A stretch of 64,000 bases of DNA from an uncultured Alphaproteobacteria bacterium (GCA_963780985.1 CAWAEF010000031.1:17286-81285), one strand, 5' to 3'. Positions 14,944 to 41,005 are shown, counted from the stretch's first letter. The notes: generated by a model from the letters alone, not told the origin. Made by a program: numbers and translations.

Positions 14944-15050
14944 GTCTTACGGCTTGTTTATCTCACATGATGGGCAGAGAACTTTTCTTGATGACAAGAG
15001 GGGCTTGGGTTGGATACAATTCCCTAAATGATTAAAAAAAGGGGAATCTT

Positions 15051-15710
15051 ATGATCAAGAAAACGTGTCTGTACTGCAGCATCCTAATGACCATGTTCAT
15101 TGTTCAGGAAGCGCATTCGTCAAAGTTATTGCCTGAAATGGAAGTAGTTCTGAGTAGACATATGCCTAATGGGATACAGACGCGTCCTGCTGAAAATCTC
15201 CGCCACACATTCGCCCTTACGCCTCGTTTAGTGGTTGTGTATGTAAATAATGCTCATCGTTGGAGGTCGAGGATTTACGCAGAGTTGAATTCCTATATCG
15301 CCTTTAAGGAACGTCAAGCTGATTTTATGTCGCAAATGAGCCAGGCGAATCCGCTGATCTCGCTTGATAAGGTAGTGTCCATCTATGCTTCCCCCAGGGA
15401 ACCGGGCGGCAGCGGATCACTTACCAAAAAGCAACCTCTTGAGGCGGACATATCTGAGTTTGTAATTTTGTCGGACTTGGATTTCACAGCGACAGAGCTA
15501 TTAAATGAGACTCCTTACTACTCGAGCTTGTTGGTAGCAGGAGGCGACTCTCTAGCTGAAATTCTGAAGTCTCTTAATATCGGCCAAGCTGACGTTGCCA
15601 TGCTTCTGTTTAATAAGGGTGTTTGTGAGAAGGAAGTAAGGATCCCAGAAGAGGTACTGAGATATAGATACGGAAAGATGGCTTTGTTGGATTTAGAGCA
15701 TTTTAAGTGA
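15051..15710 (+). CDS. hypothetical secreted protein
   Basis: 219 aa with signal-like MIKKTCLYCSILMTMFIVQEAHS. I recognise no family. Confidence 0.6.
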   Translation: MIKKTCLYCSILMTMFIVQEAHSSKLLPEMEVVLSRHMPNGIQTRPAENLRHTFALTPRLVVVYVNNAHRWRSRIYAELNSYIAFKERQADFMSQMSQANPLISLDKVVSIYASPREPGGSGSLTKKQPLEADISEFVILSDLDFTATELLNETPYYSSLLVAGGDSLAEILKSLNIGQADVAMLLFNKGVCEKEVRIPEEVLRYRYGKMALLDLEHFK

Positions 15711-15750
15711 TTGTTATTGCGCCGAGTCAGTTATTCTTCTCCATTCGGCC

Positions 15751-15980
15751 GTCATCCTGAACGGACGACTGCGAAGCGGGCGGTAGTGAAGGATCCAGTC
15801 AAACATGTGTCGCGTAGCGACTCTGCTTATAAATATATCAAACAAATAAATGATACAAGCAGCTGTCTATATGATGTCATACAATATGATTGGGACCATC
15901 TGCAGCAGAGTCGCTTCGCGACACATGTTTGACTGGATCCTTCACTACCGCCCGCTGCGCGGTCGTCCGTTCAGGATGAC
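15751..15980. repeat. 230-bp long-stem palindromic module (family B), stand-alone copy
   Basis: gtcatcctgaacggacgactgcgaagcgggcggtagtgaaggatccagt ... actggatccttcactaccgcccgctgcgcggtcgtccgttcaggatgac. Confidence 0.9.
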
Positions 15981-16046
15981 GGTCGGGTGTGGCTGACGCG
16001 GTCGTCCTTTAATGGGGCGGCGGCCTGCGTTTTAGGAGCAAGAGCA

Positions 16047-16769
16047 CTAGCTATAAAAACTTGATATCCACATCAGAACCGCAACCAGATAACTCACCGC
16101 AATTACGCTGTCCACTCGATCCAGGATACCGCCGTGGCCGGGGATGAGGTGGCTGCTGTCTTTCACATTGAGCTGTCGCTTGCTCCAGGATTCCAGCAGA
16201 TCGCCCAGTTGGGCCACGATGGATGTCATCACAAAGAATAAAGGCGCCGGCAACCAGGCCAGAAACGAGTTATCATAATAGGGCGTCATGGTCAGCAGAT
16301 ACCCGCCCGCAACGGTCGTGCAGATCGCCCCAAGGGCCCCTGACCAGGTTTTGTTAGGGCTGATACTCGGCACCAGCTTAGGACCCCTCAGGATGTTTCC
16401 AAACACGTAACCACCCACATCGGATAGGAACGTCAGGGTGAGAATAATGGTCAGCATCATCCAGTTCAGCTTGGTCGAAATCACCCAAAGCAAAAAATAC
16501 CCGATGAAGATATAGGCATTGCCCACGAGCAAAAACGAGACAGATCGAGGCAGGGAATCGGTTTTGATGGACATGCGAAACCATTCCACCAGGGAAAGGG
16601 CGCCTGCTATCAATATAAGAGCAAGGGTGGTCCATTGACCCAAGACCAGGCTCCAGACGACGATCGGGTAAAGGATGATGATAGAAAATATGCGCAACAG
16701 GAGGTTTTGTGTTTTGGTCAAGTTAATGTCCATACCTGCGCTGGCGGGTCTGGAATTCTCTGAGAACAT
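16047..16769 (-). CDS. cdsA: phosphatidate cytidylyltransferase
   Basis: Membrane protein with the C-terminal CdsA signature SxxKRxxxxKDxxxxIPGHGGxxDRxD (SWSKRQLNVKDSSHLIPGHGGILDRVD). The start is uncertain (TTG 16775, ATG 16769 with an AAGGA upstream, or ATG 16733). Confidence 0.88.
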   Translation of the reverse strand: MFSENSRPASAGMDINLTKTQNLLLRIFSIIILYPIVVWSLVLGQWTTLALILIAGALSLVEWFRMSIKTDSLPRSVSFLLVGNAYIFIGYFLLWVISTKLNWMMLTIILTLTFLSDVGGYVFGNILRGPKLVPSISPNKTWSGALGAICTTVAGGYLLTMTPYYDNSFLAWLPAPLFFVMTSIVAQLGDLLESWSKRQLNVKDSSHLIPGHGGILDRVDSVIAVSYLVAVLMWISSFYS

Positions 16770-17469
16770 GTTCAAGGTCCTTTTTATTGAAATCTGGCCA
16801 GTAGGTGTCCACGAACACTAGCTCTGAGTAGGATATTTCCCACAAGAGAAAGTTGCTCACCCGGTGTTCACCGCTGGTACGGATCAAGATATCAGGCGCG
16901 GGAAGGTTTGCGGTCGAAAGGTTTTCTCCCATCAGGGCCGGAGTAATATCCGCAACCACAAGCTCCCCTTGCTGGACCTTTATGGCCAATTTCTGAGCAG
17001 CGCGTGCAATATCGTAATGGCTTCCGTAATTCAAGCACACGGTCATAAAAAAGCGCGAGTTGTTGGAGGTTAAACTCTCCGCGTAATCGATCATCTCGCG
17101 CACATCTTTATTGAGCGTTTCTCTCTCGCCGATGAAGCGCAGGCATATACCATTTTCATGGATCTCCGCAAGCTCGCGCTTCAAGGACATGCAAATAAGC
17201 TTCATCAAGCCATTGACTTCCTCGAGGGGGCGGTTCTTATTCTCCGTGGAGAAGGCAAATACCGTCAAATACTTAATGCCATAATCGCGCATGGCTTCTG
17301 AGGTGCGCCGCAGAGCTTTAACGCCCTGACGATGACCTTCTAAAACGGGCAGACTGCGCGCCGATGCCCAACGACGATTTCCGTCCATAATAATAGCAAT
17401 ATGCTCAGGCATTTGGCCTGAGCTATTGAATTCCGGAATTGAGGGTTGAGCAAGATTGGCGCTATTCAC
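16723..17469 (-). CDS. uppS: undecaprenyl-diphosphate synthase (isoprenyl transferase)
   Basis: 248 aa with IIMDGNRRWA and the C-terminal RTSGEHRVSNFLLWE motifs. Confidence 0.93.
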   Translation of the reverse strand: MNSANLAQPSIPEFNSSGQMPEHIAIIMDGNRRWASARSLPVLEGHRQGVKALRRTSEAMRDYGIKYLTVFAFSTENKNRPLEEVNGLMKLICMSLKRELAEIHENGICLRFIGERETLNKDVREMIDYAESLTSNNSRFFMTVCLNYGSHYDIARAAQKLAIKVQQGELVVADITPALMGENLSTANLPAPDILIRTSGEHRVSNFLLWEISYSELVFVDTYWPDFNKKDLEHVLREFQTRQRRYGH

Positions 17470-17472
17470 TGT

Positions 17473-18030
17473 TTAAACCTGCATAATGTCTTTTTCTTTG
17501 GATACCAGTTCGTCGTCGATCTTCTTGATGAAGTCGTCTGTCAGCTGCTGGACCTCATCCGCATAGCGGTGATGCTCGTCTTCCGGCAAGTTATCGTCTT
17601 TTTCCATCTTCTTTAAAGCTTCCATACCATCACGGCGAATGTTACGTATTGAAACCCGAGCATTTTCCGCATATTTCTTAGCGATCTTTGTCATCTCAAT
17701 GCGTCGTTCTTGGCTGAGCTCAGGCAGAGGCACACGGATTAGCTGCCCATCGGCCATGGGATTTAGGCCCAGATTGGCTTCACGAATGGATTTCTCGACG
17801 GCTGAGACCATAGATTTGTCCCATACCTGAACGGTCAAAAGCCGCGCTTCTGGAGCGCCAATGGTTCCCACTTGGGGCAAGGGCATTTGCGAGCCATAGG
17901 CCTCAACCATAATGGGCTCAAGCAGGGCAATGGAAGCTCGACCTGTGCGCAAACCTGCGAATTCACGATGAAGGGCTTCTTGCGTATTGTGCATCCGGCG
18001 TTTTAAATCGGCGATCAGTGCGTTTGGCAT
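17473..18030 (-). CDS. frr: ribosome recycling factor
   Basis: 185 aa with typical RRF sequence and position after pyrH. Confidence 0.95.
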
Positions 18031-18041
18031 GTTTTTACTCC

Positions 18042-18794
18042 TTAAAGGTTTTCTTGGTGATCAACACGAGTGAATTTTCCCTTGCCATCGAGCGTCTTCA
18101 GGATGTTTCCGGGCTCCATAATCGAAAAAACAATGATGGGAATATGATTGTCTCGCGCTAAAGCGAGAGCAGGCGCATCCATAACTTTCAGATGGTCTTG
18201 CAGGGCCTGGTTATAGCTGACGGTTTCGTAGTGCTTGGCACCCTTATCTTTAAGAGGGTCTGAAGTATAAACGCCATCGACCTTAGTGCCCTTAAGCAGC
18301 ACATCACAACCCATTTCAGACGCGCGCAGAGCCGCCGCCGTATCCGTCGTGAAGTAGGGGCTGCCGCTGCCTCCCGCAAATATCACTATCCGTCCTTTTT
18401 CCAGGTGCCGCATAGCACGCCGACGCATATAAGGTTCACAAATGGTTTGCATAGGAATCGCCGAAAGGACACGGGTGTCTACATCGATTTTTTCAAGAGA
18501 CGATTGCAAGGCAAGAGCATTAATAACGGTTGCTAACATGCCCATGTAATCAGACGTTGAGCGCTCGATACCCTCTTTTTCGCCGACGATACCCCGAAAA
18601 ATATTACCGCCGCCAATAACAACGCATACTTCATATCCCGCATCATGAACCTGCTTAATGTCTTGAGCAATGCGAGAGACCATAGCCGCCGAGAGACCAT
18701 ATTCATGATCACCCATCAACACCTCACCTGACAGTTTGATGAGAGCACGTTTATAGACTTTGTTCACAAGAGCAGGGGCGTTCATATCAGTCAC
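18042..18794 (-). CDS. pyrH: UMP kinase
   Basis: 250 aa with [18 protein letters not shown] and the pyrH-frr synteny. Confidence 0.95.
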
Positions 18795-27488: not shown

Positions 27489-28925
27489 ATGTTCATGCAT
27501 GCGGTAATTTTATCTGGTGGCGTCGGTAGTCGTTTGTGGCCTGTTTCTCGGGATATGCATCCCAAGCCATTTATGAAGCTGTCCGACAGGCAAAGTTTCC
27601 TGCAGAAAGTATATTTGAGAAGTGCGGCGATCCCTTCGACGCAAAGTATTACGACGGTCACGAATAAAGAGTTGTTCTTTAAGACGAAGCAAGAATTTGA
27701 CGAAGTTAAGAGTCTTGCCGATCATAACGTCGATCTCAATTTCATTACGGAACCTTTCGGACGCAATACGGCTGCGGCTATTGCTTTGGCTGCTTTGAAG
27801 ATTTCTGAGTTATATGGACCAGATTCAATCATGCTGGTGCTGCCTTCTGACCACGTTATTTCTAATCAAGAGGCTTTTGCACAAGCAGTATCCCAGGCTG
27901 AACATTTGGCTCGCCAGGGCAAAGTTGTTACTTTTGGCATTAAGCCAAGCTCCCCGGAAACTGGGTATGGATATATCGAGGCCAAGGGCTTTGATGTTGT
28001 CCGCTTTGTGGAAAAACCTTCATTAGAGCAAGCTGAGATTTACTTAAGTGAAGGTAAGTATTTGTGGAATTCGGGTATGTTCTGTTTTTCTGCGGAGACG
28101 ATGCTGAAGGAAATGCAGGCTCTGTGTCCGGATATTCTGGCTGCGGCCAAAAAATGTTTCGCGTGTTCGAAAGTCGCCGATACGGCTGCATACAGGCATT
28201 TAGAAGTGGATTCTGCAACCTTTAAGGACGTGCCATCCAATTCCATTGACTATGCCATCATGGAAAAGACGACCCATGCGGCCATTATCCCTTGCGACAT
28301 TGGCTGGAGTGACATCGGGACCTGGACGGCTATCAGTGAGTTTTCTGTGCTGGATTCCGATGGTAACAGCATCAATGGCGATGTCATCACCCACGATGTG
28401 AAGAACTGTTATATCCAAAGCCGTGATCGCGTGATCGGTGCGGTGGGCCTTGAGGATCTGATTATCGTGGATACGGAAGACGCGATTCTGGTGGCCAATA
28501 AGAAGAAATCCCAGGAAGTTAAGAATATTTATGCTCAATTAAAGCATGATGGTCACGAGGCGCATAAGCTGCACAAAACCGTGCAGCGGCCCTGGGGAAC
28601 CTATACGGTTTTGGAAGAGGCGCCAGGGTTTAAGATCAAGCGCATTGAGGTGCTGCCAGGGGCTCAGTTGAGCTTGCAGATGCACAACCATCGCGCGGAA
28701 CATTGGGTGGTAGTAAGTGGCACCGCTCTCGTGGTCAATGGCGAGGAAGAAATGACTCTGGGTGTGAGCCAATCCACCTATATTCCCACAGGCAACAAAC
28801 ACCGCTTGAGCAATCCGGCTGAGGATTTGCTTGTGATGATTGAAGTCCAGACAGGGGCATACCTGGGTGAAGACGACATCATTCGATTCGACGACATCTA
28901 TGGACGTGCCAAAGATGCCGCATAG
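27489..28925 (+). CDS. manC: mannose-1-phosphate guanylyltransferase / mannose-6-phosphate isomerase (bifunctional type II PMI-GMP)
   Basis: 478 aa with the N-terminal ILSGGVGSRLWPVSR nucleotidyl-transferase motif and a C-terminal cupin (RPWGTY...QMHNHRAEHWVVVSG). Confidence 0.92.
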   Translation: MFMHAVILSGGVGSRLWPVSRDMHPKPFMKLSDRQSFLQKVYLRSAAIPSTQSITTVTNKELFFKTKQEFDEVKSLADHNVDLNFITEPFGRNTAAAIALAALKISELYGPDSIMLVLPSDHVISNQEAFAQAVSQAEHLARQGKVVTFGIKPSSPETGYGYIEAKGFDVVRFVEKPSLEQAEIYLSEGKYLWNSGMFCFSAETMLKEMQALCPDILAAAKKCFACSKVADTAAYRHLEVDSATFKDVPSNSIDYAIMEKTTHAAIIPCDIGWSDIGTWTAISEFSVLDSDGNSINGDVITHDVKNCYIQSRDRVIGAVGLEDLIIVDTEDAILVANKKKSQEVKNIYAQLKHDGHEAHKLHKTVQRPWGTYTVLEEAPGFKIKRIEVLPGAQLSLQMHNHRAEHWVVVSGTALVVNGEEEMTLGVSQSTYIPTGNKHRLSNPAEDLLVMIEVQTGAYLGEDDIIRFDDIYGRAKDAA

Positions 28926-30288
28926 TCTCGCTTGCTTTAAAGCCTACGATATTCGTGGGCGTGTGCCTGACGTGCTGAGTTATGATTTAGCTTATGATAT
29001 TGGCCGTGCCTATGCGCGGGTTATTAATCCTGGAACGGTCGTTGTGGGTTATGATATCCGCTTAGAGAGCCCAGAGATGGCCAATCGCCTGATGCAGGGT
29101 CTCAATGACGAAGGTGTCAACGTTATCAATATTGGACTATGCGGTACGGAAGAAGTTTATTTCCAAACCTTTGATCGAGGTGTGGGCGGCGGCATCATGA
29201 TAACGGCCAGCCATAACCCCAAGGGGTACAATGGTATGAAGTTGGTGCGTGAGAATTCGATCCCTATTTCAGGGGATTCCGGACTATTCGCGATCCGCGA
29301 TCTGGCGGCCCAGTTGCAGGCAGAGCGGCTTCCGTCTAAGGGACCGATAGGCAACATCAATGAGGACTTTGATAAGAGCCGCTATATCTCCCATATTCTG
29401 GGCTATGTGGACACGGACTTACTAAAACCCCTCAAAATCGTCGTAAACCCTGGCAATGGCGGGGCAGGGCTTATCATTAAGCTGCTGGAGCCACATTTGC
29501 CCTTTGAATTTATTTACATCAATGAAGAGCCCGATGGGAATTTCCCCAACGGTGTGCCTAACCCGTTGTTGCCCGATGCGCGGTCGCTTACAGCCGATGC
29601 GGTGAAGCTGCATGGCGCCCATATGGGTATTGCTTGGGATGGCGATTTTGATCGCTGTTTCTTGTTCTCAGAAAATGGCGACTTCATTGAGGGCTATTAC
29701 ATCGTAGGCTTGTTGGCGGCGGCATTTCTTAAGAAGTCTAAGGGTGAGAAAATTATTCATGATCCCCGCCTTACTTGGAATACCATTGATATGGTGGAAC
29801 AAGCAGGCGGACTCGCCATTCAAAGTAAAACCGGCCACGCCTTTATCAAAGAACGTATGAGGGAAGAGAACGCAATCTATGGCGGCGAGATGAGTGCCCA
29901 CCACTATTTCCGCGATTTCGCGTACTGCGACAGCGGCATGATTCCCTGGTTGCTGGTGGCAGAGCTAATGTGCATCGCCGGCAAACCCCTGTCCCAGATG
30001 GTGGAAGAGCGCATCGCAGCTTACCCTTGCAGCGGCGAGATCAACTATAAGGTTGAGAACGCACCGGCAGTGATCGCTGGCATAATGAAGTCCTACGAGT
30101 CCCAGAATCCCAAGGTCGAGAACATCGATGGGCTGAGCCTAGAGTTTCCAGAATGGCGTTTGAACCTGCGAACATCCAACACGGAGCCTTTGCTGCGGTT
30201 GAATGTGGAGACCCGGGCGGATCAGAAACTGTTGTGGGAAAAGGTTTCTGAGGTTGAGGCGCTGTTGGGTCAGGGGACGAGTTCTTAA
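28915..30288 (+). CDS. manB: phosphomannomutase
   Basis: The start is taken at ATG 28915 (MPHSLACFKAYDIRG). The active-site loop TASHNPKGYNGMK and GIAWDGDFDR are present. It overlaps the manC stop by 11 nt. Confidence 0.9.
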   Translation: MPHSLACFKAYDIRGRVPDVLSYDLAYDIGRAYARVINPGTVVVGYDIRLESPEMANRLMQGLNDEGVNVINIGLCGTEEVYFQTFDRGVGGGIMITASHNPKGYNGMKLVRENSIPISGDSGLFAIRDLAAQLQAERLPSKGPIGNINEDFDKSRYISHILGYVDTDLLKPLKIVVNPGNGGAGLIIKLLEPHLPFEFIYINEEPDGNFPNGVPNPLLPDARSLTADAVKLHGAHMGIAWDGDFDRCFLFSENGDFIEGYYIVGLLAAAFLKKSKGEKIIHDPRLTWNTIDMVEQAGGLAIQSKTGHAFIKERMREENAIYGGEMSAHHYFRDFAYCDSGMIPWLLVAELMCIAGKPLSQMVEERIAAYPCSGEINYKVENAPAVIAGIMKSYESQNPKVENIDGLSLEFPEWRLNLRTSNTEPLLRLNVETRADQKLLWEKVSEVEALLGQGTSS

Positions 30289-30714: not shown

Positions 30715-31500
30715 ATGTTTGATAGTTTATGGACTTATCGTTATTTTATTTTTTCGGCCATACGAAACGACCTGACGGCTCGTTTTGCGCATTCTAAGCT
30801 TGGTGCCTTATGGGTCATCTTCAATCCCTTGGCCCAGGTCATGATCTATGCTTTGATTTTATCGAACGTTTTGGCGGCTAAGCTTCCCGGTATCGACAAT
30901 AAATATGCCTTTGCTATCTATTTGTTGGCTGGAACGCTGGGTTGGGCACTGTTCTCAGAAATCATCACCCGCTCGGTCAGTATGTTTGTGGAAAGCGCCA
31001 ATCTGTTAAAGAAAATCAACTTCCCCAAGGTAACGCTGCCGACCATAATGTTGGGATCATGCTTGTTGAACAACTTGATTTTGTTAAGCGTCATCTTGGT
31101 CATATTTACCCTGCTGGACCATTCTTTTAGCATGACTATTTTTTGGCTGATACCTGTTACAGGAACTTTGGTGTTGTTTGGCTTTGGCATTGGTTTGATC
31201 CTTGGTGTGATTAATGTATTTGTGCGCGACGTGTCCCAGGTTGTGCCTATCTTTTTGCAGGTTCTGTTTTGGTTTACGCCCATTGTCTATCCCATATCTA
31301 TTATCCCGGCAGAGTATGTATCCTGGATGAGCTTGAATCCGTTGGTTCCCATCATCGAGGCGTATCATAACATTTTGATGTACGACCAAGCGCCGGATAT
31401 GACGAGTTTTCTGCATCTGAATGTGATTGGGCTGGCCATTACTCTTGTTGGGCTGTTGATGTTCAGGAGAGCAAGCCCTGAAATGGTGGACGTGCTATGA
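30715..31500 (+). CDS. wzm: polysaccharide ABC-2 type transporter permease
   Basis: 261 aa, 6-TM ABC-2 type. The N-terminus RNDLTARFAHSKLGALWVIFNPL is typical of Wzm/TagG. It is coupled to the ATPase by an ATGA overlap. Confidence 0.88.
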   Translation: MFDSLWTYRYFIFSAIRNDLTARFAHSKLGALWVIFNPLAQVMIYALILSNVLAAKLPGIDNKYAFAIYLLAGTLGWALFSEIITRSVSMFVESANLLKKINFPKVTLPTIMLGSCLLNNLILLSVILVIFTLLDHSFSMTIFWLIPVTGTLVLFGFGIGLILGVINVFVRDVSQVVPIFLQVLFWFTPIVYPISIIPAEYVSWMSLNPLVPIIEAYHNILMYDQAPDMTSFLHLNVIGLAITLVGLLMFRRASPEMVDVL

Positions 31501-32720
31501 GTATTTTAAGGGTTAGCCAATTAGGAAAATCTTACCGGCAATATGCTTCGGAATTAATCCGTTTTGCGCGCTGGTTTGGTTTGCCGTTTAAACCCTCCGC
31601 CGAGCATTGGGTTCTTAACGAAATTTCCTTTGAGGTTCTGAAGGGCCAATCGGTCGGGATCATCGGTAAGAATGGTGCTGGAAAAAGTACTCTGTTGAAG
31701 ATGATTACGGGCGTTCTACAGCCCTCCACGGGCACGATTCAAGTGAATGGAAAGATTGCCGCCATCCTAGAGTTAGGCATGGGCTTTAATCCCGATCTTA
31801 ACGCCAGGCAGAACGTCTACCATGCGCTGGGCCTAATGGGTCATAGTCACGGGGCAATAGACGATGCTATGCCGGATTTAGAAGCATTCGCTGAAATCGG
31901 GGAATACTTCGATCAACCGATTCGCACCTACTCCAGTGGCATGCAGATGCGCGTGGCATTTGCTGTGGCAACGGCCTTCAGGCCTGATATTTTAATCGTG
32001 GATGAAGCATTGTCCGTCGGGGATGCTTATTTCCAACACAAGAGCTTTGATCGTATCCGCGAGATGAAAGAGCAGGGGACGTCCCTTTTGATCGTGTCCC
32101 ATGACTTGTCATCCATACAAGCGCTCTGCGATAAAGTGATTCTGTTACAAAATGGTGGACTTATAATGGAAGGGCGGCCTGAAACCGTTCTGGATTATTA
32201 TAATGCATCTCTGGCTGAGCATCAGAACCAAAAGGTTCGCCAAGTGGAGCATGGTGTCAACAAAGTTCAAACAATATCTGGTACGGGTGAAGTAACCATT
32301 TCTAAGGTGGAGCTATTGGATCACGATGGCCAATGTATCGAGGTAGCCAGTGTTGGTCAGGAATTAACTTTGGCGGTGGGTGCTAAAGCCCATTCTAATA
32401 TTGAAAAGCTGGTGCTTGGTTTTGCGATTAAAAACCATCTAGGGCAGGTGATCTATGGAACAAACACCTATCATACGAAACAAATCCAGCATAAAATAGC
32501 GGCTGGTTCCGAGCTGTCTTTTTTGGTAAAGTTCCCTGCTAATTTGGGTGTGGGGACGTATTCGGTGCAACTGGCTTTGTGTAGTTCAGATACCCATTTA
32601 GAGAATAATTATGAATGGCGTGACCTGGCTTATGTCTTTGAAATAGCTAATGTAGGCAGAGACTTCTTTGCAGGCATGGCATGGTTGGATTCAGCGATCG
32701 AGGTAAAAAAAGCTTCATGA
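31497..32720 (+). CDS. wzt: polysaccharide ABC transporter ATP-binding protein with C-terminal extension (Wzt-type)
   Basis: 407 aa with Walker A GKNGAGKST, signature YSSGMQMRVAFA and Walker B ILIVDEALSVGD. About 150 extra C-terminal aa resemble the Wzt carbohydrate-binding domain. Confidence 0.88.
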   Translation: MSILRVSQLGKSYRQYASELIRFARWFGLPFKPSAEHWVLNEISFEVLKGQSVGIIGKNGAGKSTLLKMITGVLQPSTGTIQVNGKIAAILELGMGFNPDLNARQNVYHALGLMGHSHGAIDDAMPDLEAFAEIGEYFDQPIRTYSSGMQMRVAFAVATAFRPDILIVDEALSVGDAYFQHKSFDRIREMKEQGTSLLIVSHDLSSIQALCDKVILLQNGGLIMEGRPETVLDYYNASLAEHQNQKVRQVEHGVNKVQTISGTGEVTISKVELLDHDGQCIEVASVGQELTLAVGAKAHSNIEKLVLGFAIKNHLGQVIYGTNTYHTKQIQHKIAAGSELSFLVKFPANLGVGTYSVQLALCSSDTHLENNYEWRDLAYVFEIANVGRDFFAGMAWLDSAIEVKKAS

Positions 32721-32763
32721 CTTGTAACTACTCACCAAATATTGCCAGGGGTGGTAACATCTT

Positions 32764-32900
32764 CCAGCTTGTCGTCCCCGCGAAGGCGGGGATCCAGCGC
32801 AAAATGCGTCGCGGAGCGACTCTGTACTTTCTATACAGAGCTGCTTCGCAGCGCATTTTAAGAGCTGGACCCCCGCCTTCGCGGGGGCGACAAGCTGGGG
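32764..32900. repeat. 135-bp palindromic element, family A, copy 3
   Basis: ccagcttgtcgtccccgcgaaggcggggatccagcgcaaaatgcgtcgcggagcgactctg ... gctggacccccgccttcgcgggggcgacaagctgggg. Confidence 0.85.
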
Positions 32901-32940
32901 GCTTGTGCCCTCCTATCCACCATTATGCTGAGTGGTTACC

Positions 32941-35900
32941 ATGACGTTTATATCTTATGCACAGAATTTTGAAGACGTCATGTTATGGCGGGTCTTTAAA
33001 GATATTAAGAACGGCTATTACGTTGATGTTGGCTCACAAGATCCTGTGGTTGACTCGGTCAGTTATGCTTTCAGCCAAAATGGCTGGAAGGGGCTTAGTG
33101 TAGAGCCGACCGAGCAGTATGTTACTCTGTTTAAAGAAACCCGCCCCCAAGACGATATTATTCAAGCATTTGTTTCCGATCATAAAACCCAGCTGGAATT
33201 TTATGTTTTTCCAGATACGGGCTTGTCTACAGCTAATTCTGAGATATCCGAGGGACACAAGCTGGCTGGTTTTGAATGCGTTACAAAACTTGTTGAGACC
33301 ATTACCCTTGACGATGTTTTAAGGCATGCCGGTAATAGGGAAATTCATTGGCTGAAGATTGATGTGGAAGGGCATGAAGAACAGGTTGTCAAGGGATGGA
33401 CTAATGATGTTCGGCCGTGGGTGTTGGTTTTAGAAAGTTTCCTGCCTTTATCAGGAGTTCAGACCCTTCATAAGATTGAAAGTTACCATACTTGGGAGCC
33501 ATCTCTTCTTGAAAAAGGCTATGAATTTGTATACGCAGATGGACCAAATCGTTTTTATCTGCATAAGGATCATTTGGATTTAAAACCATCCTTTCGTTTT
33601 CCCCCGAATGTTTTGGAAGATGACTATATAACTTATCAGGCTTCTCAAGCGGAGGATCGGGTTACTCAGGCGGAGCATAGAGCTTGGAAGGCGGATTGTG
33701 GACTCAGGGAAAGCGAGCTAGCCATTCAGTCCCTCAGGAGCGAGCTTGGCGACCAGGCGCTGAAGCTGAAAATTATAGATGACCAGCGGTCCTATCTGGA
33801 GAGCATGCAAGCGGCTCTAAAGATAGCAACCGAGCGGCAAGCTGAATTATTGGCTGAAAAATGCGCTTTTGAGATACGCATTGCTGAAACGAAGGACCTG
33901 ATAGCGAAACTTGAAGCGGAAAATGCCCACAAGCAAGAATTGTTGGTTGAGACGGCTAATCTCGAGTCAACCGTCGAGCTGATGAATCAACAAATTGCGG
34001 AACTAGAAGCGGAAAATGCCCACAAGCAAGAATTACAGGGTGAGATGGCTAGATTAGAGTCATGCTTGGAAACGACCAATCTGCAAATCGCTGAGTTAAA
34101 TACGGATAAAATCGTTATGTCAAAACACGAGGATGAGCTACTTAAGCAAATTCGAGATCGGGATACCCATATTCGAGAGTTAGAGACTGAACTATGCCAT
34201 CGCAAAGCCTCTTCTTCCGAAGCATCCAGGGCGCTTGAAGCACTACATCGCAGCCTTTCCTGGAAAATCACCCGTCCTTTACGGGAATCCAAAAAGATTC
34301 TCCGGGATTGTTACCTGAAGCTAAGATCGGTCCTCTGGCGAGTGGCTAAGCCGATCTTCAGCAAAATTCTGTTAGAAGTGGGGCTTATCGTGAAAAGACA
34401 CCCAGGTCTAAAGGAAAAGGTACTCCTCCAGTTGCACAGATTCCCGCGGCTAGCATCACGAATGCAGCGGGTGTTTGAGCAAGAGGTGCACAAAAAGGTA
34501 TTTGGCACCGCCAACGTCGAACAACTTCTGGTCATCGATGGCTCTTCCATTGAAGACATTTTGAAATCCCGTTTGAAATCCCAAGCCTATACCCATTTGC
34601 CGAAAAGGGCAGGGTGTGATGGTATGAGAATCATACTGGATATGCGGGAAGACTCTATTCAAAGCACCGCAGGTCAATTTACCATGAATCATACCAAGGC
34701 GTTGCTTCGAAACGCAGGGAAACATGAATATATCCTGCTATTGTCAGATAGCTCGCCCGAATTTAAGCACCGACTGACCCGAGAATTCCATGGGCTCTTA
34801 GCTGACGACCGCGTCATTGTCTGGAATGATCTTCCCGATGAGTTTTATAAGAACGTTGACCAAACGACACGCGCCACTGTTGCGGGGATCTTGCGGGAAC
34901 AATTTATCTCCGGGTTGCAGCCAGACCTGATCTATACCACCAGCCTGCCCGTGGATGATGGCTCACCCGGGTCCTGTCGATCCAGCATCCCAACAGCTGT
35001 CACCTTGTTCCATATGCAGCCATACGTCCTTTCGCAAATCGACTTTCTTAAACGAGCGGACCTTATTTTAGTCCCTTCACCTGCCTTACGAGAACAGGTC
35101 ATTGAACATCTGCATAAGCCAGAAGACCAGGTCGTTAACATTGCCTGCGATGACAATGGCCTATTATTGGATCTTGCAAACTGTCGCGAGAAACATCAGC
35201 AGGAAAACTATTGGAACACACTTGCCAAGACCACGTTACAGGCCTTTGAAAATGCGCGCGAGCAACATGTAGGCTCCGTTGCAATCCGGATGCCACACGT
35301 TGAAGAACTATCCAGAGCCGTATCCGAGCAATACTCGCGTCTTAGGAACAGTATGGTGCGCCGCAATCTAAATTTGGGCAACGGGCTCAAAATAGTCTTA
35401 GATCTGCAAGGTGCGCAAGGCTCACAGGCTGAAAGAGGCATTGGACGCTACAGTATCGTCATGGCAAAGGCCATACTTCAAAACCCCAGAGACCATAAGA
35501 TTTTTATTGCCCTGAATGGAGCATTTCCTGAATCCGTTGAGAAGTTGAAAAATGAATTCAAGGATCTTGTCCATCCAGATGACATCATCGTATGGAATGG
35601 TTTGTCGCACACGGCACGCTACCACCAAACCAATAGCGACCGAGCCCAGCTGTCGGCCTTCATTCGTGAGGGCACATTGTGGAGTCTGAATCCTGATGTT
35701 CTTCACATATCCAGCCTATTTGAAGGTCTTCATGAGGATCATGTTACTTCCATTAAAAGCTATTTTGGCGAAGTACCGACGACTGTTACTCTTTATGACT
35801 TGATTCCCTTTATCAATCCAGACCAGTATCTGGCATTGCCCGAGGCGAAAGAGTTATACATGCAGCAAATCGAACATCTAAAACAGGCTGATTTGCTGTT

Positions 35901-36690
35901 ATCTATCTCCGATTCTTCCCGACAGGAAGTGCTTGATCATCTGGGCATCCAGCAGTTCAGAAAAACTGTAACCATATCCTGTGATACCTCTTCCAACTTC
36001 CGCGCCCTGAATCTTTCTGAGCCGGAAATTGCGGACTTGCGGTCAAGATATCACATTACCGGTAAATTCATCTTAACGGTGGGAGCCGTGGGCGCGGGCA
36101 ATGATCGCAAAAATGCCAAAGCCTTAGTAGAAGCATATGCGCGATTGCCCAAGCATTTACAGAATGAATATCAGCTGGTGATTATTGGCTCAGCGGACGA
36201 TATTGCAAAGCTTGCGATGAAGGAATTTACAAGAAACCTATCCTTGGGAGACGACAGAATCCTGATTACGGGTCATATCTCAGAACGGGATTTGGTGTCC
36301 CTTTATAATCAAACGGAGCTTTTTGTATTTCCGTCTCTGCACGAGGGTTTTGGTCTTCCTGCACTAGAAGCCATGCGCTGCGGTGTTCCCGTCATAGGCT
36401 CCAACACCAGCAGCATTCCAGAAGTGATTGGCATCGAGGATGCTCTGTTTGATCCTACATCTATTGAGTCTATGGCGGCAAAAATGGAGCAGGCCCTGAC
36501 CTCGGAAGAATTTAGGCAAGCATTGCTTTCCCACGGTAAGGAACAGCAGAAGAGGTTTTCCTGGGAGTCCATAGCTGACCGTGCTTTCGACGCCTTTGAG
36601 GAGTTCTATGGAAGGTCGCGGAACTCAGGGGTGACCATAACGAAGGACACGAGTCAGTCAACAAAAAAGCTGCAGCAACTCGCGGGCTAA
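32941..36690 (+). CDS. fusion protein: FkbM-type methyltransferase + long coiled coil + two GT4 glycosyltransferase modules
   Basis: The ORF starts at 32932 (GTG) and ATG 32941 gives MTFISYAQNFEDV. The FkbM pattern is YYVDVGSQDP...WLKIDVEGHEEQVV. A heptad-rich region lies at about 33640-34290. The C-terminal GT4 signature is FVFPSLHEGFGLPALEAMRCGVPVIGSNTSSIPEV. Confidence 0.85.
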   Translation: MTFISYAQNFEDVMLWRVFKDIKNGYYVDVGSQDPVVDSVSYAFSQNGWKGLSVEPTEQYVTLFKETRPQDDIIQAFVSDHKTQLEFYVFPDTGLSTANSEISEGHKLAGFECVTKLVETITLDDVLRHAGNREIHWLKIDVEGHEEQVVKGWTNDVRPWVLVLESFLPLSGVQTLHKIESYHTWEPSLLEKGYEFVYADGPNRFYLHKDHLDLKPSFRFPPNVLEDDYITYQASQAEDRVTQAEHRAWKADCGLRESELAIQSLRSELGDQALKLKIIDDQRSYLESMQAALKIATERQAELLAEKCAFEIRIAETKDLIAKLEAENAHKQELLVETANLESTVELMNQQIAELEAENAHKQELQGEMARLESCLETTNLQIAELNTDKIVMSKHEDELLKQIRDRDTHIRELETELCHRKASSSEASRALEALHRSLSWKITRPLRESKKILRDCYLKLRSVLWRVAKPIFSKILLEVGLIVKRHPGLKEKVLLQLHRFPRLASRMQRVFEQEVHKKVFGTANVEQLLVIDGSSIEDILKSRLKSQAYTHLPKRAGCDGMRIILDMREDSIQSTAGQFTMNHTKALLRNAGKHEYILLLSDSSPEFKHRLTREFHGLLADDRVIVWNDLPDEFYKNVDQTTRATVAGILREQFISGLQPDLIYTTSLPVDDGSPGSCRSSIPTAVTLFHMQPYVLSQIDFLKRADLILVPSPALREQVIEHLHKPEDQVVNIACDDNGLLLDLANCREKHQQENYWNTLAKTTLQAFENAREQHVGSVAIRMPHVEELSRAVSEQYSRLRNSMVRRNLNLGNGLKIVLDLQGAQGSQAERGIGRYSIVMAKAILQNPRDHKIFIALNGAFPESVEKLKNEFKDLVHPDDIIVWNGLSHTARYHQTNSDRAQLSAFIREGTLWSLNPDVLHISSLFEGLHEDHVTSIKSYFGEVPTTVTLYDLIPFINPDQYLALPEAKELYMQQIEHLKQADLLLSISDSSRQEVLDHLGIQQFRKTVTISCDTSSNFRALNLSEPEIADLRSRYHITGKFILTVGAVGAGNDRKNAKALVEAYARLPKHLQNEYQLVIIGSADDIAKLAMKEFTRNLSLGDDRILITGHISERDLVSLYNQTELFVFPSLHEGFGLPALEAMRCGVPVIGSNTSSIPEVIGIEDALFDPTSIESMAAKMEQALTSEEFRQALLSHGKEQQKRFSWESIADRAFDAFEEFYGRSRNSGVTITKDTSQSTKKLQQLAG

Positions 36691-36803: not shown

Positions 36804-38747
<1,944 letters not shown>

Positions 38748-38766
<19 letters not shown>

Positions 38767-39890
38767 AAATCGGTGTAGATGCCAAAAGCCTTTGTGGTAC
38801 CATTACGGGTATCGGCAGATATACCATTGAGATGTGCAAAGCCCTCAGCACCATTCCCGGTGTGTCACTTTATCTTTACAGCCCCAGTCCCATTAATGAA
38901 GAAATTGTAAAAGCCATTGGTCCCAAACATTACAGGTCTGGAACTATCAACAGCCGGGTGGTAAGGCAACTCTGGTGTGATACCTCCCTGCCGATGTGGG
39001 CGAATACCGATGGGGTCGAGGTGTTATGGGGACCTAGCCATCGCTTACCCCGCTTCATAGCCTCTCATATTGTCCGGGTTGTTACTATTCATGACTTGGT
39101 CTGGATATATGCCAGTCAAACCATGAGCAGCCTCACCAGATTTCTAGAACGGCTCCATATGCCCGCAGCAATTAAAAAAGCAGACCGGATTGTTGCCGTC
39201 TCATCAGCTACCGCCAAGTCAATTGCCGAGAATTACCGCAGCCGTGCCAATAGGGTAGCCACAGTGCTTGAGGGTGCCGATCACATGACGACTACACCCG
39301 ACACAACAGTGCTGGAATCCTATAACATATCGGGACCTTATTGTCTATTTGTGGGAACCCTAGAGCCCCGCAAGAATCTGGCGAATTTACTAGCTGCATA
39401 CGCAAAATTACCCCAGGAAGTCAAAGAAAAATGCACATTGCTTGTCGCTGGAGGCAAGGGCTGGGGGGATGTGAATCTGGCAGAGACTATTAAGAAGCTT
39501 GAACTCGAAGCCCACGTACTGCTGCTCGGCTACGTGGACGAGCCAACCCTGGCGGCTTTGTATTCTCAGGCGCGATTTTTAGTCATGCCATCTCTCTACG
39601 AAGGCTTTGGGCTACCCTTGGTGGAGGCAATGACCTATGGCACCCCGGTGCTCACATCTAATAACTCATCCATGATCGAAGTGGCGGGAGACGCGGGAAT
39701 TCTCGTTGATCCCTTAGACCTTGATTCTATTACCCAGGGCCTGTTACAACTCATCACCGACGACAAGCTGCACAGCAAGTTGTCCCAGAATGCGACAAAG
39801 CATGTAGCCCAATTCACCTGGAGCCGAGCCGCGGAACAGTTGACCCAGGTGCTACATGAAGCTGTAGCTGAAAGGAAAATAGCTTCATGA
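38748..39890 (+). CDS. GT4 family glycosyltransferase (WbpZ/WbpY-like)
   Basis: 380 aa with the C-terminal VMPSLYEGFGLPLVEAMTYGTPVLTSNNSSMIEV. Confidence 0.88.
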
Positions 39891-41005
39891 AGGTCCTACA
39901 TTTCTGCAAGTCCTACTTCCCGGACAATTACGGTGGCATCGAAACCACTATTAACCAGATATGCTTGGGCACCAAAGCCCTGGGTATAGAGTCTGAGATT
40001 CTCTGCCTGACACCAAATAAAGAAGAATCAACCATTGAGATCAACGGCATAAAGGTCCATCGTGTACCACAATTAATGTCGCTAGCATCCACACCGCTTT
40101 CATTTAAAATCCTCAAGCGATATGCTGAGATAGCCAAAGATTTCGACGTAATAAACTTCCATTTCCCGTGGCCCATGGCTGATCTAACCCATTTGGTCTC
40201 GGGTTTGAACAAGCCCTCGGTTGTGCTGTATCATTCAGATATCGTCAAACAAAAGACAATTCTGAAATTCTACAAACCCTTAATGAACCGATTTTTATCA
40301 AGCGTGGACGCAATCGTTGCCACATCACCTAACTATGCGGCGAGTAGCGAAGTGCTGCATCAGTACGCACACAAAGTAAGTGTTATTCCCTTTGGTTTGT
40401 CCCGGGCATCTTATCCCCAGCCGTCCGAAGAGCGACTCAATTACTGGCGCGAGAGGTTTCCATCCCGCTTCTTTTTATTCATAGGTATCTTGCGCTATTA
40501 TAAGGGCGCTCATGCCCTGATCGATGCGGCCAAGGGATTGTACGTACCTGTCGTCTTGATTGGTGCTGGCGGTATTGAGTCTGAACTGAAAGCCCAGGCT
40601 GAAGAAATCAACGCTTCCAACGTACATTTTCTGGGGGCACTGTCCGATGAAGATAAGGTGGCATTGTTGATGCTCTCTTATGGTGTAATTTTACCATCCC
40701 AGCTGCGCTCTGAGGCCTTTGGTATCTCGTTGCTAGAGGGAGCCATGTATGGCAAGCCTCTGATTTCCTGCGAAATCGGAACGGGCACCACCTATATCAA
40801 TATCCACGGGCAAACCGGCATAGTTATACCCCCCGAGTACCCATATGCTCTCCACCAAGCCATGAAGAATCTCCTAGACAACCCAGACAAAGCCGCAGAA
40901 CTGGGACAAGGCGCAGCCAAAAGGTTCGAAGAACTCTTTACGGAACAGAAGATGGCAAAGTCCTATGCGGACTTGTATCGCAAGGTTATGGAGAATAAGA
41001 GATAG
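39887..41005 (+). CDS. GT4 family glycosyltransferase
   Basis: 372 aa with ILPSQLRSEAFGISLLEGAMYGKPLISCEIGTG. An ATGA overlap joins it to the previous GT. Confidence 0.85.
   Translation: MKVLHFCKSYFPDNYGGIETTINQICLGTKALGIESEILCLTPNKEESTIEINGIKVHRVPQLMSLASTPLSFKILKRYAEIAKDFDVINFHFPWPMADLTHLVSGLNKPSVVLYHSDIVKQKTILKFYKPLMNRFLSSVDAIVATSPNYAASSEVLHQYAHKVSVIPFGLSRASYPQPSEERLNYWRERFPSRFFLFIGILRYYKGAHALIDAAKGLYVPVVLIGAGGIESELKAQAEEINASNVHFLGALSDEDKVALLMLSYGVILPSQLRSEAFGISLLEGAMYGKPLISCEIGTGTTYINIHGQTGIVIPPEYPYALHQAMKNLLDNPDKAAELGQGAAKRFEELFTEQKMAKSYADLYRKVMENKR

Follow-up and report, generated by a model that had tools for sequence, protein, structure and literature searches.

A large enzyme that probably builds a surface sugar chain, measures it with a helical spacer and caps it with methyl

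Known terminators and the setting of the fusion gene

In characterised precedents, the coiled coil that separates the terminator from the polymerase sets the length of the chain, and the polymerases carry two or three glycosyltransferase (GT) modules, one per linkage type (PMC11231755). These functions can be joined in one polypeptide: ORF6 of Klebsiella pneumoniae O7 has been characterised as an N-terminal methyltransferase(-kinase) followed by a coiled coil and two GT modules (PMC11231755), and WsaE of Geobacillus stearothermophilus fuses a capping methyltransferase to two polymerising rhamnosyltransferase domains (PMC2943079).

The window, by which we mean the whole stretch of 64,000 nucleotides that was analysed, carries a related fusion gene in a locus ordered manC-manB-wzm-wzt(CBM)-fusion gene-gmd-rmd-wbdB-like-wbdC-like. 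This order is colinear with manC-manB-wzm-wzt-wbdD-wbdA-wbdB-wbdC of E. coli O9, with clear homology for ManC, ManB, Wzm, Wzt, the first module of WbdA, WbdB and WbdC. The genes around the fusion gene are as follows.

27489-30288, + strand: manC and manB, GDP-mannose supply (Pfam; 44% and 59% identity to E. coli O9 ManC and ManB)
30715-31500, + strand: wzm, ABC-2 permease (PF01061; 39% identity to E. coli O9 Wzm)
31497-32720, + strand: wzt, ABC-transporter ATPase with a C-terminal carbohydrate-binding module (CBM, residues 259-397; PF00005 and PF14524 Wzt_C, E 3e-34; 37% identity to E. coli O9 Wzt)
36825-38766, + strand: gmd and an rmd-like reductase, supply of GDP-D-rhamnose or another GDP-6-deoxyhexose (PF16363, E 5e-138, for gmd; SDR fold for the reductase)
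38748-39890, + strand: WbdB-like stand-alone GT4, putative adaptor/primer transferase (30% identity, E 8e-52, to E. coli WbdB)
39887-41005, + strand: WbdC-like stand-alone GT4, putative adaptor/primer transferase (48% identity, E 3e-131, to WbdC)

Unlike the E. coli O9 cluster, the locus contains an insertion of gmd and rmd, and the sugar is therefore probably D-rhamnose rather than mannose alone. Assignment of the reductase as Fcl was rejected; it has an SDR fold and is rmd-like. The setting is that of an ABC-transporter-dependent locus, which fits the analogy to WbdD and WbbB drawn in the first-pass annotation, and the adjacent wzt encodes the Wzt_C module that marks the partner transporters of WbdD-type terminators, with a putative role in reading the cap. 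A palindromic repeat element lies between wzt and the fusion gene.

The nearest relative is only ~45 to 50% identical in the methyltransferase and GT4 parts; its locus has an identical gene order plus one extra gene, absent here, that encodes a 1469-aa multi-GT4 protein. Relatives of the head domain occur in at least 585 species. When 73 loci with a relative of the methyltransferase were compared at the species level, a wzt with a homologous CBM lay just upstream in 39, gmd was found in 50 and rmd in 46. FkbM-plus-spacer proteins, alone or fused to GTs, adjoin wzt in many species.

Architecture of the fusion protein

The fusion gene is a single uninterrupted open reading frame, as the first-pass annotation had read it, and has 1249 codons. 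The ATG at 32941 is favoured as the start over the alternative GTG at 32932 because homologues begin MTFISYAQNFED. Three independent assemblies (NCBI/ENA, JGI and ENA sources) contain the full-length protein, 98% identical and equal in length, with an unchanged junction length, and the suspicion of an assembly fusion of separate genes is thereby contradicted. Its parts, all on the plus strand, are listed below.

32941-36690, + strand: whole ORF, 1249 aa, comprising methyltransferase, helical spacer, membrane-proximal helices, GT4 remnant and GT4 module
32941-33600, + strand: FkbM-type SAM-dependent methyltransferase domain, putative chain-capping enzyme (residues 1-220; PF05050, TIGR01444, AF2, Foldseek)
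33655-34086, + strand: spacer long helix 1 (residues 239-382; a single 144-residue helix in AF2, Pro/Gly-poor, heptad signal in some windows)
33901-34086, + strand: tandem duplication, 2 x 93 nt (2 x 31 aa: IAKLEAENAHKQELLVETANLESTVELMNQQ / IAELEAENAHKQELQGEMARLESCLETTNLQ; TRF, repeat search)
34129-34251, + strand: spacer helix 2 (residues 397-437; AF2, beyond a low-confidence break at residues 383-396)
34255-34503, + strand: basic amphipathic helices, putative peripheral membrane-binding or junction region (residues 439-521; AF2, charge, hydrophobic moment)
34258-34284, + strand: SWKITRPLR motif closing the spacer (residues 440-448; conserved in the family)
34624-35160, + strand: degenerate GT4 N-terminal half-domain, predicted to be non-catalytic (residues 562-740; BLASTP, alignment, AF2, Foldseek)
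35161-35385, + strand: linker (residues 741-815; partly helical, low-confidence AF2)
35386-36615, + strand: intact GT4 (GT-B, retaining) module of the WbdA family, putative chain-extending enzyme (residues 816-1225)
36343-36369, + strand: EX7E motif, E1135 to E1143, within HEGFGLPALEAM (read from the sequence; columns invariant in the alignment)

The assignment of the N-terminal ~220 aa to the FkbM type was borne out by profile searches, in which PF05050 matched residues 29-196 (E 1.1e-23; 84.7 bits against a cut-off of 22.7) and TIGR01444 scored 48.3 bits against a cut-off of 37.7. The SAM-binding fold is present: AF2 pLDDT is mostly >90 over residues 11-220, and the top 50 Foldseek matches to the model are all class I SAM methyltransferases, led by MeT1 (PDB 6g80), a mannoside O-methyltransferase (E 1.8e-5, identity 15%). 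D29, G31, E55, K139, D141, E143, G144 and E146, which we take to be the SAM-binding residues of the FkbM family, are all present, in columns invariant across 61 family sequences. From these sequence features we are confident that the head belongs to the FkbM methyltransferase family, for which methyl transfer to a sugar hydroxyl is predicted. Profile searches of the protein gave no kinase or GT99 match, no similarity to E. coli HS WbdD was found by BLASTP at E 1e-5 or better, and in the AF2 model a gap of only ~20 residues separates the end of the methyltransferase (~residue 220) from the start of the helix (residue 239). A literature search found no experiment on the protein itself or on any FkbM-type member.

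The spacer had been described as heptad-rich, which held for its helical character and for local windows but not for its length as a whole. Residues ~225-445 contain 0 to 2 Pro/Gly per 28-aa window, and AF2 predicted helices at residues 239-382 (pLDDT 59 to 95, and at least 81 over residues 251-360) and 397-437. Our own crude 28-residue a/d score, calculated every 14 residues and compared with shuffles, exceeded the 99th percentile only in windows 253-280, 365-392 and 393-420, the last of which, in the helix 2 region, gave the highest local score of the spacer. A Fourier test at period 3.5 over the whole of residues 239-382 was not significant (z -0.5), and the power in the helix 2 region was (z 2.4). 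The 31-aa repeat amounts to four heptads plus three residues, with the heptads interrupted. We infer that the spacer may oligomerise as a coiled coil. At the low-confidence break, residues 383-396, it might fold back and then span less than 30 nm.

The reported 93-nt internal duplication was confirmed. Copies at 33901-33993 and 33994-34086 (TRF score 221, 77% matches) share 21 of 31 aa and differ at 23 of 93 nt, in 5 synonymous and 10 non-synonymous codons; LEAENAHKQEL starts at 33910 and again at 34003, each time one codon upstream of the position first given (33913 and 34006). Directly after the second copy, a segment beginning IAEL resembles the start of a third, diverged copy. Comparison of homologues revealed spacers of 43 to 790 aa in which internal tandem repeats are common, a range that fits length retuning by duplication; on this sequence comparison, duplication could be a route to a new chain length.

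In 44 of 120 homologues the variable spacer gives way to a W[RK]xTxP[LMIF]R motif. In this part of the protein, AF2 places helices at residues 439-486, 488-499 and 502-521. Residues 437-545 contain 24 K+R versus 10 D+E (net +14), and hydrophobic moments of 0.5 to 0.7 over residues 437-515 lie above the 95th percentile of the protein. By analogy with the C terminus of WbdD, a membrane role for these basic helices is putative.

Two GT4 polymerase modules had been proposed. Both GT4-like regions exist, but only the second, residues 816-1225 with HEGFGLPALEAM, is complete, and the first is a remnant consisting of an N-terminal Rossmann half. The complete module has both Rossmann halves and EX7E (PF13439 in the N-half, E 5e-7; PF00534 in the C-half, E 4e-32). 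It is 33.6% identical to residues 1-428 of E. coli HS WbdA over 432 aa (E 1.5e-83) and 43 to 46% identical to the first modules of 840-aa and 1240-aa multi-GT4 proteins, and it keeps every invariant column of 17 WbdA-like homologues. The remnant, residues 562-740, matched the N-half of the downstream GT4 at 29% identity (BLASTP, E 2e-21), with homology ending at ~residue 737, and gave a weak, sub-threshold match to PF13579. Its alignment revealed loss of the RGIGRY loop, replacement of the LYDLIP motif by LFHMQP, a 16-aa deletion and no C-domain (the donor-binding half). AF2 modelled it as a 7-strand Rossmann fold, and Foldseek matches covered only ~190 of the ~370 residues of GT-B enzymes. 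M562 aligns with Met1 of WbdA-like polymerases. No relatives of the linker (residues 741-815) were detected in an exhaustive search, which matched only query residues 18-192, equivalent to residues 562-736 of the protein.

Proposed function and competing explanations

Our preferred reading, to which we assign a probability of about 0.6, is that the protein is a single-chain terminator, spacer and polymerase for an O-polysaccharide-type glycan, which would be assembled in the cytoplasm on undecaprenyl diphosphate before Wzm/Wzt export it; the best reading of the product is an ABC-transporter-exported polymer of D-rhamnose/mannose. Judging from their sequences, the WbdC-like and WbdB-like GT4 enzymes would prime the lipid carrier. 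The C-terminal WbdA-type GT4, which the basic amphipathic helices would keep close to the membrane, would extend the chain from GDP-D-rhamnose and/or GDP-mannose, as homology and gene content suggest. The FkbM methyltransferase would be held up to ~27 to 30 nm away, a figure that assumes a fully extended helical spacer of ~185 to 200 residues and our own value for the rise per residue, and would reach only chains that have grown sufficiently. There it would O-methylate the non-reducing terminal sugar; the cap is expected to be plain methyl, and not methyl-phosphate, since there is no room for a kinase between the methyltransferase and the spacer. Methylation would stop extension, and the CBM present in Wzt would recognise the cap and so license export. 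The half GT4 would be what is left, without catalytic activity, of the first module of a WbdA-like polymerase whose gene was originally separate and later fused; it is conceivable that it now has a structural or docking role. With a single intact polymerising module present, and an extra 1469-aa multi-GT4 gene in the nearest relative, the polymerase complement may be incomplete or the polymer very simple.

It is possible, though unlikely, that the methyltransferase is a tailoring enzyme acting on internal residues or another substrate, that the helical region does no more than oligomerise or scaffold the GT, and that length is set by stoichiometry or export. FkbM enzymes are generic O-methyltransferases for which Pfam gives no specificity, the heptad signal is patchy, and the D-rhamnan methyltransferases PA5457 and PA5459 of P. 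aeruginosa are unlike WbdD-type length regulators (PMC3560663). However, the CBM in Wzt belongs to a class of modules that read a terminal cap in characterised systems (PMC11231755), wzt(CBM) followed by an FkbM-plus-spacer gene recurs in 39 of the 73 loci, and the methyltransferase always occupies the spacer end distal to the GT and membrane-proximal region, as in every characterised terminator (PMC11231755).

Loss would offer a different account: the gene would be a decaying fusion left behind by a vanished multi-module polymerase, its locus would yield only a short oligosaccharide or no polymer at all, and the architecture would be an evolutionary leftover. The GT4 region that lacks its donor-binding half and conserved motifs, the absence of the 1469-aa gene of the closest relative and the palindromic repeat element upstream would all suit this account, which we nevertheless regard as improbable: three assemblies carry the 1249-codon frame unbroken, the methyltransferase and the intact GT4 have kept all their invariant residues, and the remaining genes of the locus are all intact. 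The alignment of M562 with the start Met of free-standing WbdA-like polymerases implies that the terminator and polymerase parts were once separate genes, and could be taken to mean that an assembly or frameshift artefact has joined them. That is scarcely credible, given the agreement of the three assemblies and the absence of any stop codon or frame change in the frame as it stands in the window.

Extending the preferred reading of a single-chain terminator and polymerase, we tentatively suggest, while thinking it doubtful, that FkbM heads with a variable spacer and SWRxTxPLR may be the main terminator family for D-rhamnose-based ABC-exported glycans, capping by plain O-methylation, and that the dead half GT4 is kept here as an acceptor-holding or docking domain. 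If this were true, the gene would be a natural 'Rosetta-stone' fusion marking the contact surface between terminator and polymerase.

Comparison with related systems

The WbdD system of E. coli O9a/O8 (K. pneumoniae O3/O5) resembles the present one in that Wzt carries a CBM and that the capping enzyme, putative here, lies at the distal end of a long helical spacer, predicted here, with a membrane-proximal region behind it. WbdD and WbdA are separate, whereas here terminator and polymerase form one polypeptide; WbdD is a methyltransferase/kinase, whereas the head here is of the FkbM type, lacks a kinase and gave no BLAST match to WbdD at E 1e-5 or better. WbdA, to which the polymerase part is homologous, has two or three GT modules compared with the single intact GT4 found here. 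In E. coli O8 and K. pneumoniae O5 the cap is methyl only, and the same is expected here (PMC11231755).

ORF6 of K. pneumoniae O7 also starts with a methyltransferase terminator and ends in polymerising GTs on one chain, with a coiled coil between them where the present protein has a predicted helical spacer, and it works with Wzm/Wzt and a further separate GT (Kelly et al. 2024, PMC11231755). It uses a CgnL-like class I methyltransferase, a kinase and an Ig-like CBM to form a methyl-phosphate cap, and its GT2 modules draw on dTDP-L-rhamnose; the present protein has an FkbM methyltransferase with no kinase or CBM domain, one GT4 and a GT4 remnant. WbbB of K. pneumoniae O12 and Raoultella also carries terminator, coiled coil and polymerase on one chain (PMC11231755), but its terminator is a Kdo-transferring glycosyltransferase and it has two intact polymerase GT modules. 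The WbbB-like logic proposed at first holds, with the putative capping methyltransferase at the far end of the long helical spacer and GT sequence at the near end; the single-chain order with a distal terminator is found here, and the kinase of O7 and the Kdo-transferase of WbbB are not.

WsaE shares an N-terminal O-methyltransferase, which caps its own chain, and fused polymerising GT domains, encoded directly after wzm and wzt (PMC2943079), and serves a Gram-positive S-layer glycan of L-rhamnose. MeT1 of Mycobacterium hassiacum, the best structural match, is a SAM-dependent O-methyltransferase acting on mannosides (PMC9883506); it is a stand-alone cytoplasmic enzyme of 15% identity, whose methylation target is the 1-OH at the reducing end of methylmannose polysaccharide, and it has no spacer or GT. 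Uncharacterised FkbM multidomain proteins, among them those of Pseudomonas carbonaria, Variovorax sp. GT1P44 and an alphaproteobacterial MAG (P0002), are also built from this N-terminal domain, a helical spacer of variable length and SWRxTxPLR, with GT4 and/or GT2 behind; many such proteins adjoin wzm/wzt(CBM) and gmd/rmd, as here. These fusions have two or three intact GT modules, P0002 having one, and among the best matches listed in the exhaustive search an internal half GT4 behind an FkbM terminator region occurred only in the protein's own cluster. The first-pass annotation had regarded the combination as undescribed, but ORF6 of K. pneumoniae O7 (PMC11231755) and WsaE (PMC2943079) precede it, and FkbM-spacer-GT fusions are common in databases. 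The design is already known from Klebsiella and others, and this protein is a variant of it rather than a new principle.

Extent and domains of the fusion protein

The fusion protein is encoded by a single ORF of 1,249 codons, which runs without interruption from 32941 to 36690 (+) of the window. Translation likely starts at the ATG at 32941, judging from the sequence, since homologues begin MTFISYAQNFED; a GTG nine bases 5' of this ATG is a possible alternative. Three contigs from independent assemblies carry the protein (NCBI/ENA, 163 kb; JGI, 24 kb; ENA, 23 kb), and the full-length copies share 98% identity and keep a constant length across the domain junctions. An origin as an assembly fusion of separate genes, a concern raised in the first-pass annotation, is therefore excluded; the fusion is real. 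Among the GTDB species representatives, the best match to the protein is just 45% identical (locus L003), and NCBIfam holds no specific equivalog for either the fusion or the GT4 genes of the locus. The domains and repeats are as follows (residues of the fusion protein, or window positions where nucleotides are stated; + strand).

Residues 1 to 220: FkbM-type methyltransferase (PF05050, E = 1.1e-23; TIGR01444 over cut-off)
Residues 221 to 238: linker of ~20 residues, modeled with low confidence
Residues 239 to 437: spacer; in the AlphaFold2 model, a helix at 239 to 382 (144 residues), a low-confidence break at 383 to 396 and a helix at 397 to 437 (41 residues)
Nucleotides 33901 to 33993 and 33994 to 34086: 93-nt tandem duplication (TRF score 221)
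Residues 439 to 521: junction, SWKITRPLR and then three basic amphipathic helices (AlphaFold2)
Residues 562 to 740: half GT4 domain, its match limited to the N-terminal Rossmann half
Residues 816 to 1225: intact GT4 module, the sole complete one, with both halves (PF13439 and PF00534, E = 4e-32)

The 25 amino acid differences among the three copies all fall within residues 102 to 375 (window 33244 to 34065), 22 of them in the methyltransferase domain (residues 102 to 217), and residues 376 to 1249 are invariant. This clustering suggests mosaicism through recombination, or diversifying selection acting on the methyltransferase's substrate-facing half.

Methyltransferase head, spacer and junction

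Searching PDB sequences with the methyltransferase alone gave no match, so a fold comparison was needed. The AlphaFold2 model, built from a 61-sequence alignment, has a pLDDT mostly above 90, and the only PDB entries matched by Foldseek were class I SAM methyltransferases. The top match was Mycobacterium hassiacum MeT1 (6g80, E = 1.8e-5), an O-methyltransferase whose substrates are mannosides (PMC9883506). The family-invariant residues (D29, G31, E55 and the KIDVEGxE block) are present. Profile matches and predicted fold thus agree with the initial assignment of the N terminus as an FkbM-type methyltransferase. The linker that follows is too short for the kinase of WbdD(O9a) or of Klebsiella pneumoniae O7 ORF6.

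The spacer is acidic, with 0 to 2 Pro/Gly per 28 residues. In a crude a/d heptad score of our own making, sampled at 14-residue steps, just three windows exceeded the 99th percentile of shuffles (residues 253 to 280, 365 to 392 and 393 to 420), and all of them lie in the spacer. A global Fourier test for a period of 3.5 over the long helix (residues 239 to 382) was not significant, so we make no claim that an unbroken canonical heptad coiled coil is present. The heptads are interrupted, and the 31-aa repeat comprises four heptads plus three residues. A search of PDB chains with residues 232 to 440 returned nothing useful, the sole match being CHMP1B (E = 1.7). The heptad-rich coiled coil described at first pass is thus borne out in part, by long, Pro/Gly-poor predicted helices and local heptad windows but not by global periodicity; on the model, the spacer is likely a coiled coil. 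The internal duplication of 93 nt, also described then, is confirmed; its two copies differ at 23 of 93 nt, and it is not recent.

The spacer terminates in SWKITRPLR, and 44 of 120 homologues have this motif at the end of their spacer. Net charge over residues 437 to 545 is +14, and the hydrophobic moments of the junction (0.5 to 0.7) are above the 95th percentile of the protein. By analogy with the C terminus of WbdD (PMC11231755), these predicted helices sit where a peripheral membrane anchor would be expected.

At the C termini of two free-standing WbdA-like multi-GT4 proteins, P0193 and P0205, a segment that by eye seems helical is followed by SSW[KR]VT.F.RF, at columns about 1000 to 1030 of our alignment of the half-domain and GT4 modules with WbdA-like proteins. 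The SWRxT motif common to these C termini and to the spacer end of FkbM terminators may have a shared role, in interaction or in assembly.

One intact glycosyltransferase module and a half-domain

The two GT4 polymerase modules originally proposed are reduced to one complete module and an N-terminal remnant lacking the donor-binding half, an error in module count that matters for function. The intact module retains its EX7E motif (HEGFGLPALEAM) and every column invariant among 17 homologues. It is 43 to 46% identical to the first module of 840-aa and 1,240-aa multi-GT4 proteins, a large family, and 33.6% identical to residues 1 to 428 of E. coli HS WbdA (E = 1.5e-83). Homology to WbdA, WbdB and WbdC was established by direct comparison with the E. 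coli HS O9 locus.

The half-domain aligns with its neighboring module at 29% identity (E = 2e-21); the RGIGRY loop is lost, LYDLIP has become LFHMQP, 16 residues are deleted and the donor-binding half is absent. Its AlphaFold2 model is a seven-strand Rossmann domain, for which Foldseek matched ~190 of the ~370 residues of GT-B enzymes. HMMER, run exhaustively against 1.84 billion representatives, detected 674 relatives; of the 150 top-ranking ones, almost all correspond to residues 1 to 198 of WbdA-like proteins, with M562 of the fusion protein aligned to their Met1. The best match among them, P0248, is 38% identical. A recent internal duplication of the neighbor's N-terminal half was considered as the origin and rejected, since the half-domain is closer to the first module of unrelated WbdA-like proteins such as P0248 than to the neighbor. 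Since M562 corresponds to Met1 and the match is confined to the N-terminal half, the alignments argue that the half-domain is what remains of the first module encoded by a formerly separate polymerase gene, which would have been fused behind the terminator and have lost its C-domain afterwards. P0248 was considered as a second carrier of a half-module and was rejected, its first module being complete.

In locus L001, that of the nearest relative P0002, a 1,469-aa multi-GT4 protein (14287 to 18696) seems to start with an N-half-only, motif-degenerate GT4 (residues 1 to about 200; RGIGRY replaced by NQIAQNSF), behind which further GT4 modules follow. If this reading, made from the sequence and a BLAST match to residues 1 to 193, holds, degenerate half GT4 domains would recur at differing positions in related loci. 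In P0290 (1,296 aa), the N-terminal ~310 residues contain a glycine-rich LDLGCGWG, class I methyltransferase-like by eye, and are fused straight to a WbdA-like GT4, a long spacer not being obvious; cap and polymerase modules may here be arranged in a further way.

Locus, relatives and comparison with known systems

The gene order is manC, manB, wzm, wzt, fusion gene, gmd, rmd-like reductase, WbdB-like GT4 and WbdC-like GT4. The wzt product carries a Wzt_C carbohydrate-binding module (CBM; E = 3e-34), and the last two proteins are 30% identical to E. coli WbdB and 48% identical to WbdC (E = 3e-131), respectively. This matches the manC-manB-wzm-wzt-wbdD-wbdA-wbdB-wbdC order of E. coli O9, except for the fusion of terminator and polymerase and an added GDP-6-deoxyhexose branch here. 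The product is probably a D-rhamnose polymer.

Several other elements were observed nearby. A near-perfect palindrome of ~135 nt lies between wzt and the fusion gene (32761 to 32901; RNA fold, -116.8 kcal/mol; z, -16.8). Further copies of its arm motif GTCGTCCCCGCGAAGGCGGGGAT lie at 55663 to 55780 and 57435 to 57457, as one inverted pair and one single arm, against 0 occurrences expected by chance in the window. The palindrome looks like a member of a MITE/REP-like repeat family and could have a role, within the operon, in termination, attenuation or mRNA stability. Directly 3' of the last GT4 gene, a 301-aa ORF (41303 to 42208, +) has an N terminus resembling a signal peptide by eye (MKFSPYILATLLTIAPVFA) and no match in Pfam or NCBIfam. 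The listed manB ORF begins at a TTG and overlaps manC by 86 nt (28840 to 28925); its true start is probably downstream, since homology begins at residue 29 with E. coli ManB and at residue 24 with L001 ManB.

P0002, from an alphaproteobacterial MAG, shows 45 to 50% identity over its methyltransferase and GT4 portions and has the same gene order, with the 1,469-aa multi-GT4 gene in addition. Its 564-aa spacer is made up of tandem repeats that closely resemble one another (autocorrelation lag, 78; about 39-aa units by eye). Relatives of the N-terminal domain occur in at least 585 loci, scanning one genome per GTDB species. Among the 73 best loci, wzt with a homologous CBM ends just upstream of the FkbM gene in 39, and wzm, gmd and rmd are found in 41, 50 and 46, respectively. 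Most of the proteins in these 73 are short (380 to 500 aa; e.g., in Stenotrophomonas maltophilia and Pseudomonas), with room only for methyltransferase and spacer; about seven are long and have GT4 modules fused on, among them the proteins of Pseudomonas carbonaria (1,763 aa, FkbM and three GT4 C-domains) and Variovorax sp. GT1P44 (FkbM, two GT4, one GT2). The spacers of homologues measure anywhere between 43 and 790 aa, frequently with tandem repeats, which supports evolution of spacer length through internal duplication at the family level. The earlier idea that duplication retunes chain length gains plausibility from this range but is not demonstrated for the duplication here.

Each enzyme reaction in the following scheme, like the oligomeric state and the ruler effect, is our inference. 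Priming would be carried out by the WbdC-like and WbdB-like enzymes and extension by the membrane-proximal WbdA-type module. The distal FkbM head would O-methyl-cap the chain once it is long enough to span the spacer, up to about 27 to 30 nm if fully extended (by our own rise-per-residue value), and the Wzt CBM would recognize the cap, leading to export.

The length of surface polysaccharide chains influences resistance to complement, recognition by phages and bacteriocins and the quality of vaccine antigens. Just a handful of enterobacterial prototypes have established the coiled-coil ruler principle, and the fusion protein is a compact candidate for testing that principle with a different, FkbM-type and methyl-only, capping enzyme. 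The duplicated 31-aa unit and the broad spacer range are ready-made natural variants for such tests. Additional cases come from relatives in Pseudomonas, Stenotrophomonas, Burkholderia/Paraburkholderia and Variovorax, among other genera. The open-access papers searched yielded no functional work on an FkbM-type terminator. Terminators have reportedly been surveyed bioinformatically by Mann, Kimber and Whitfield (2019; Glycobiology 29:822).

The first-pass annotation was largely right in observation and right in outline in interpretation, module number and novelty excepted. It had regarded the combination of methyltransferase cap, coiled coil and polymerase in one chain as undescribed. The terminator-spacer ruler has been established in WbdD/WbdA, in WbbB and in the O4 and O7 systems of K. 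pneumoniae, the O7 case with biochemical validation (PMC11231755), and WsaE of Geobacillus stearothermophilus fuses a capping 2-O-methyltransferase to two polymerizing rhamnosyltransferase domains (PMC2943079). Given the O7 and WsaE precedents, the combination has already been described; the protein opens no new principle, and its value lies in being a tractable variant and in correcting that claim on architecture. Compared with the described systems, it has an FkbM-type head without a kinase, a WbdA-type GT4 in place of GT2, and a single intact GT module plus a fused half-domain.
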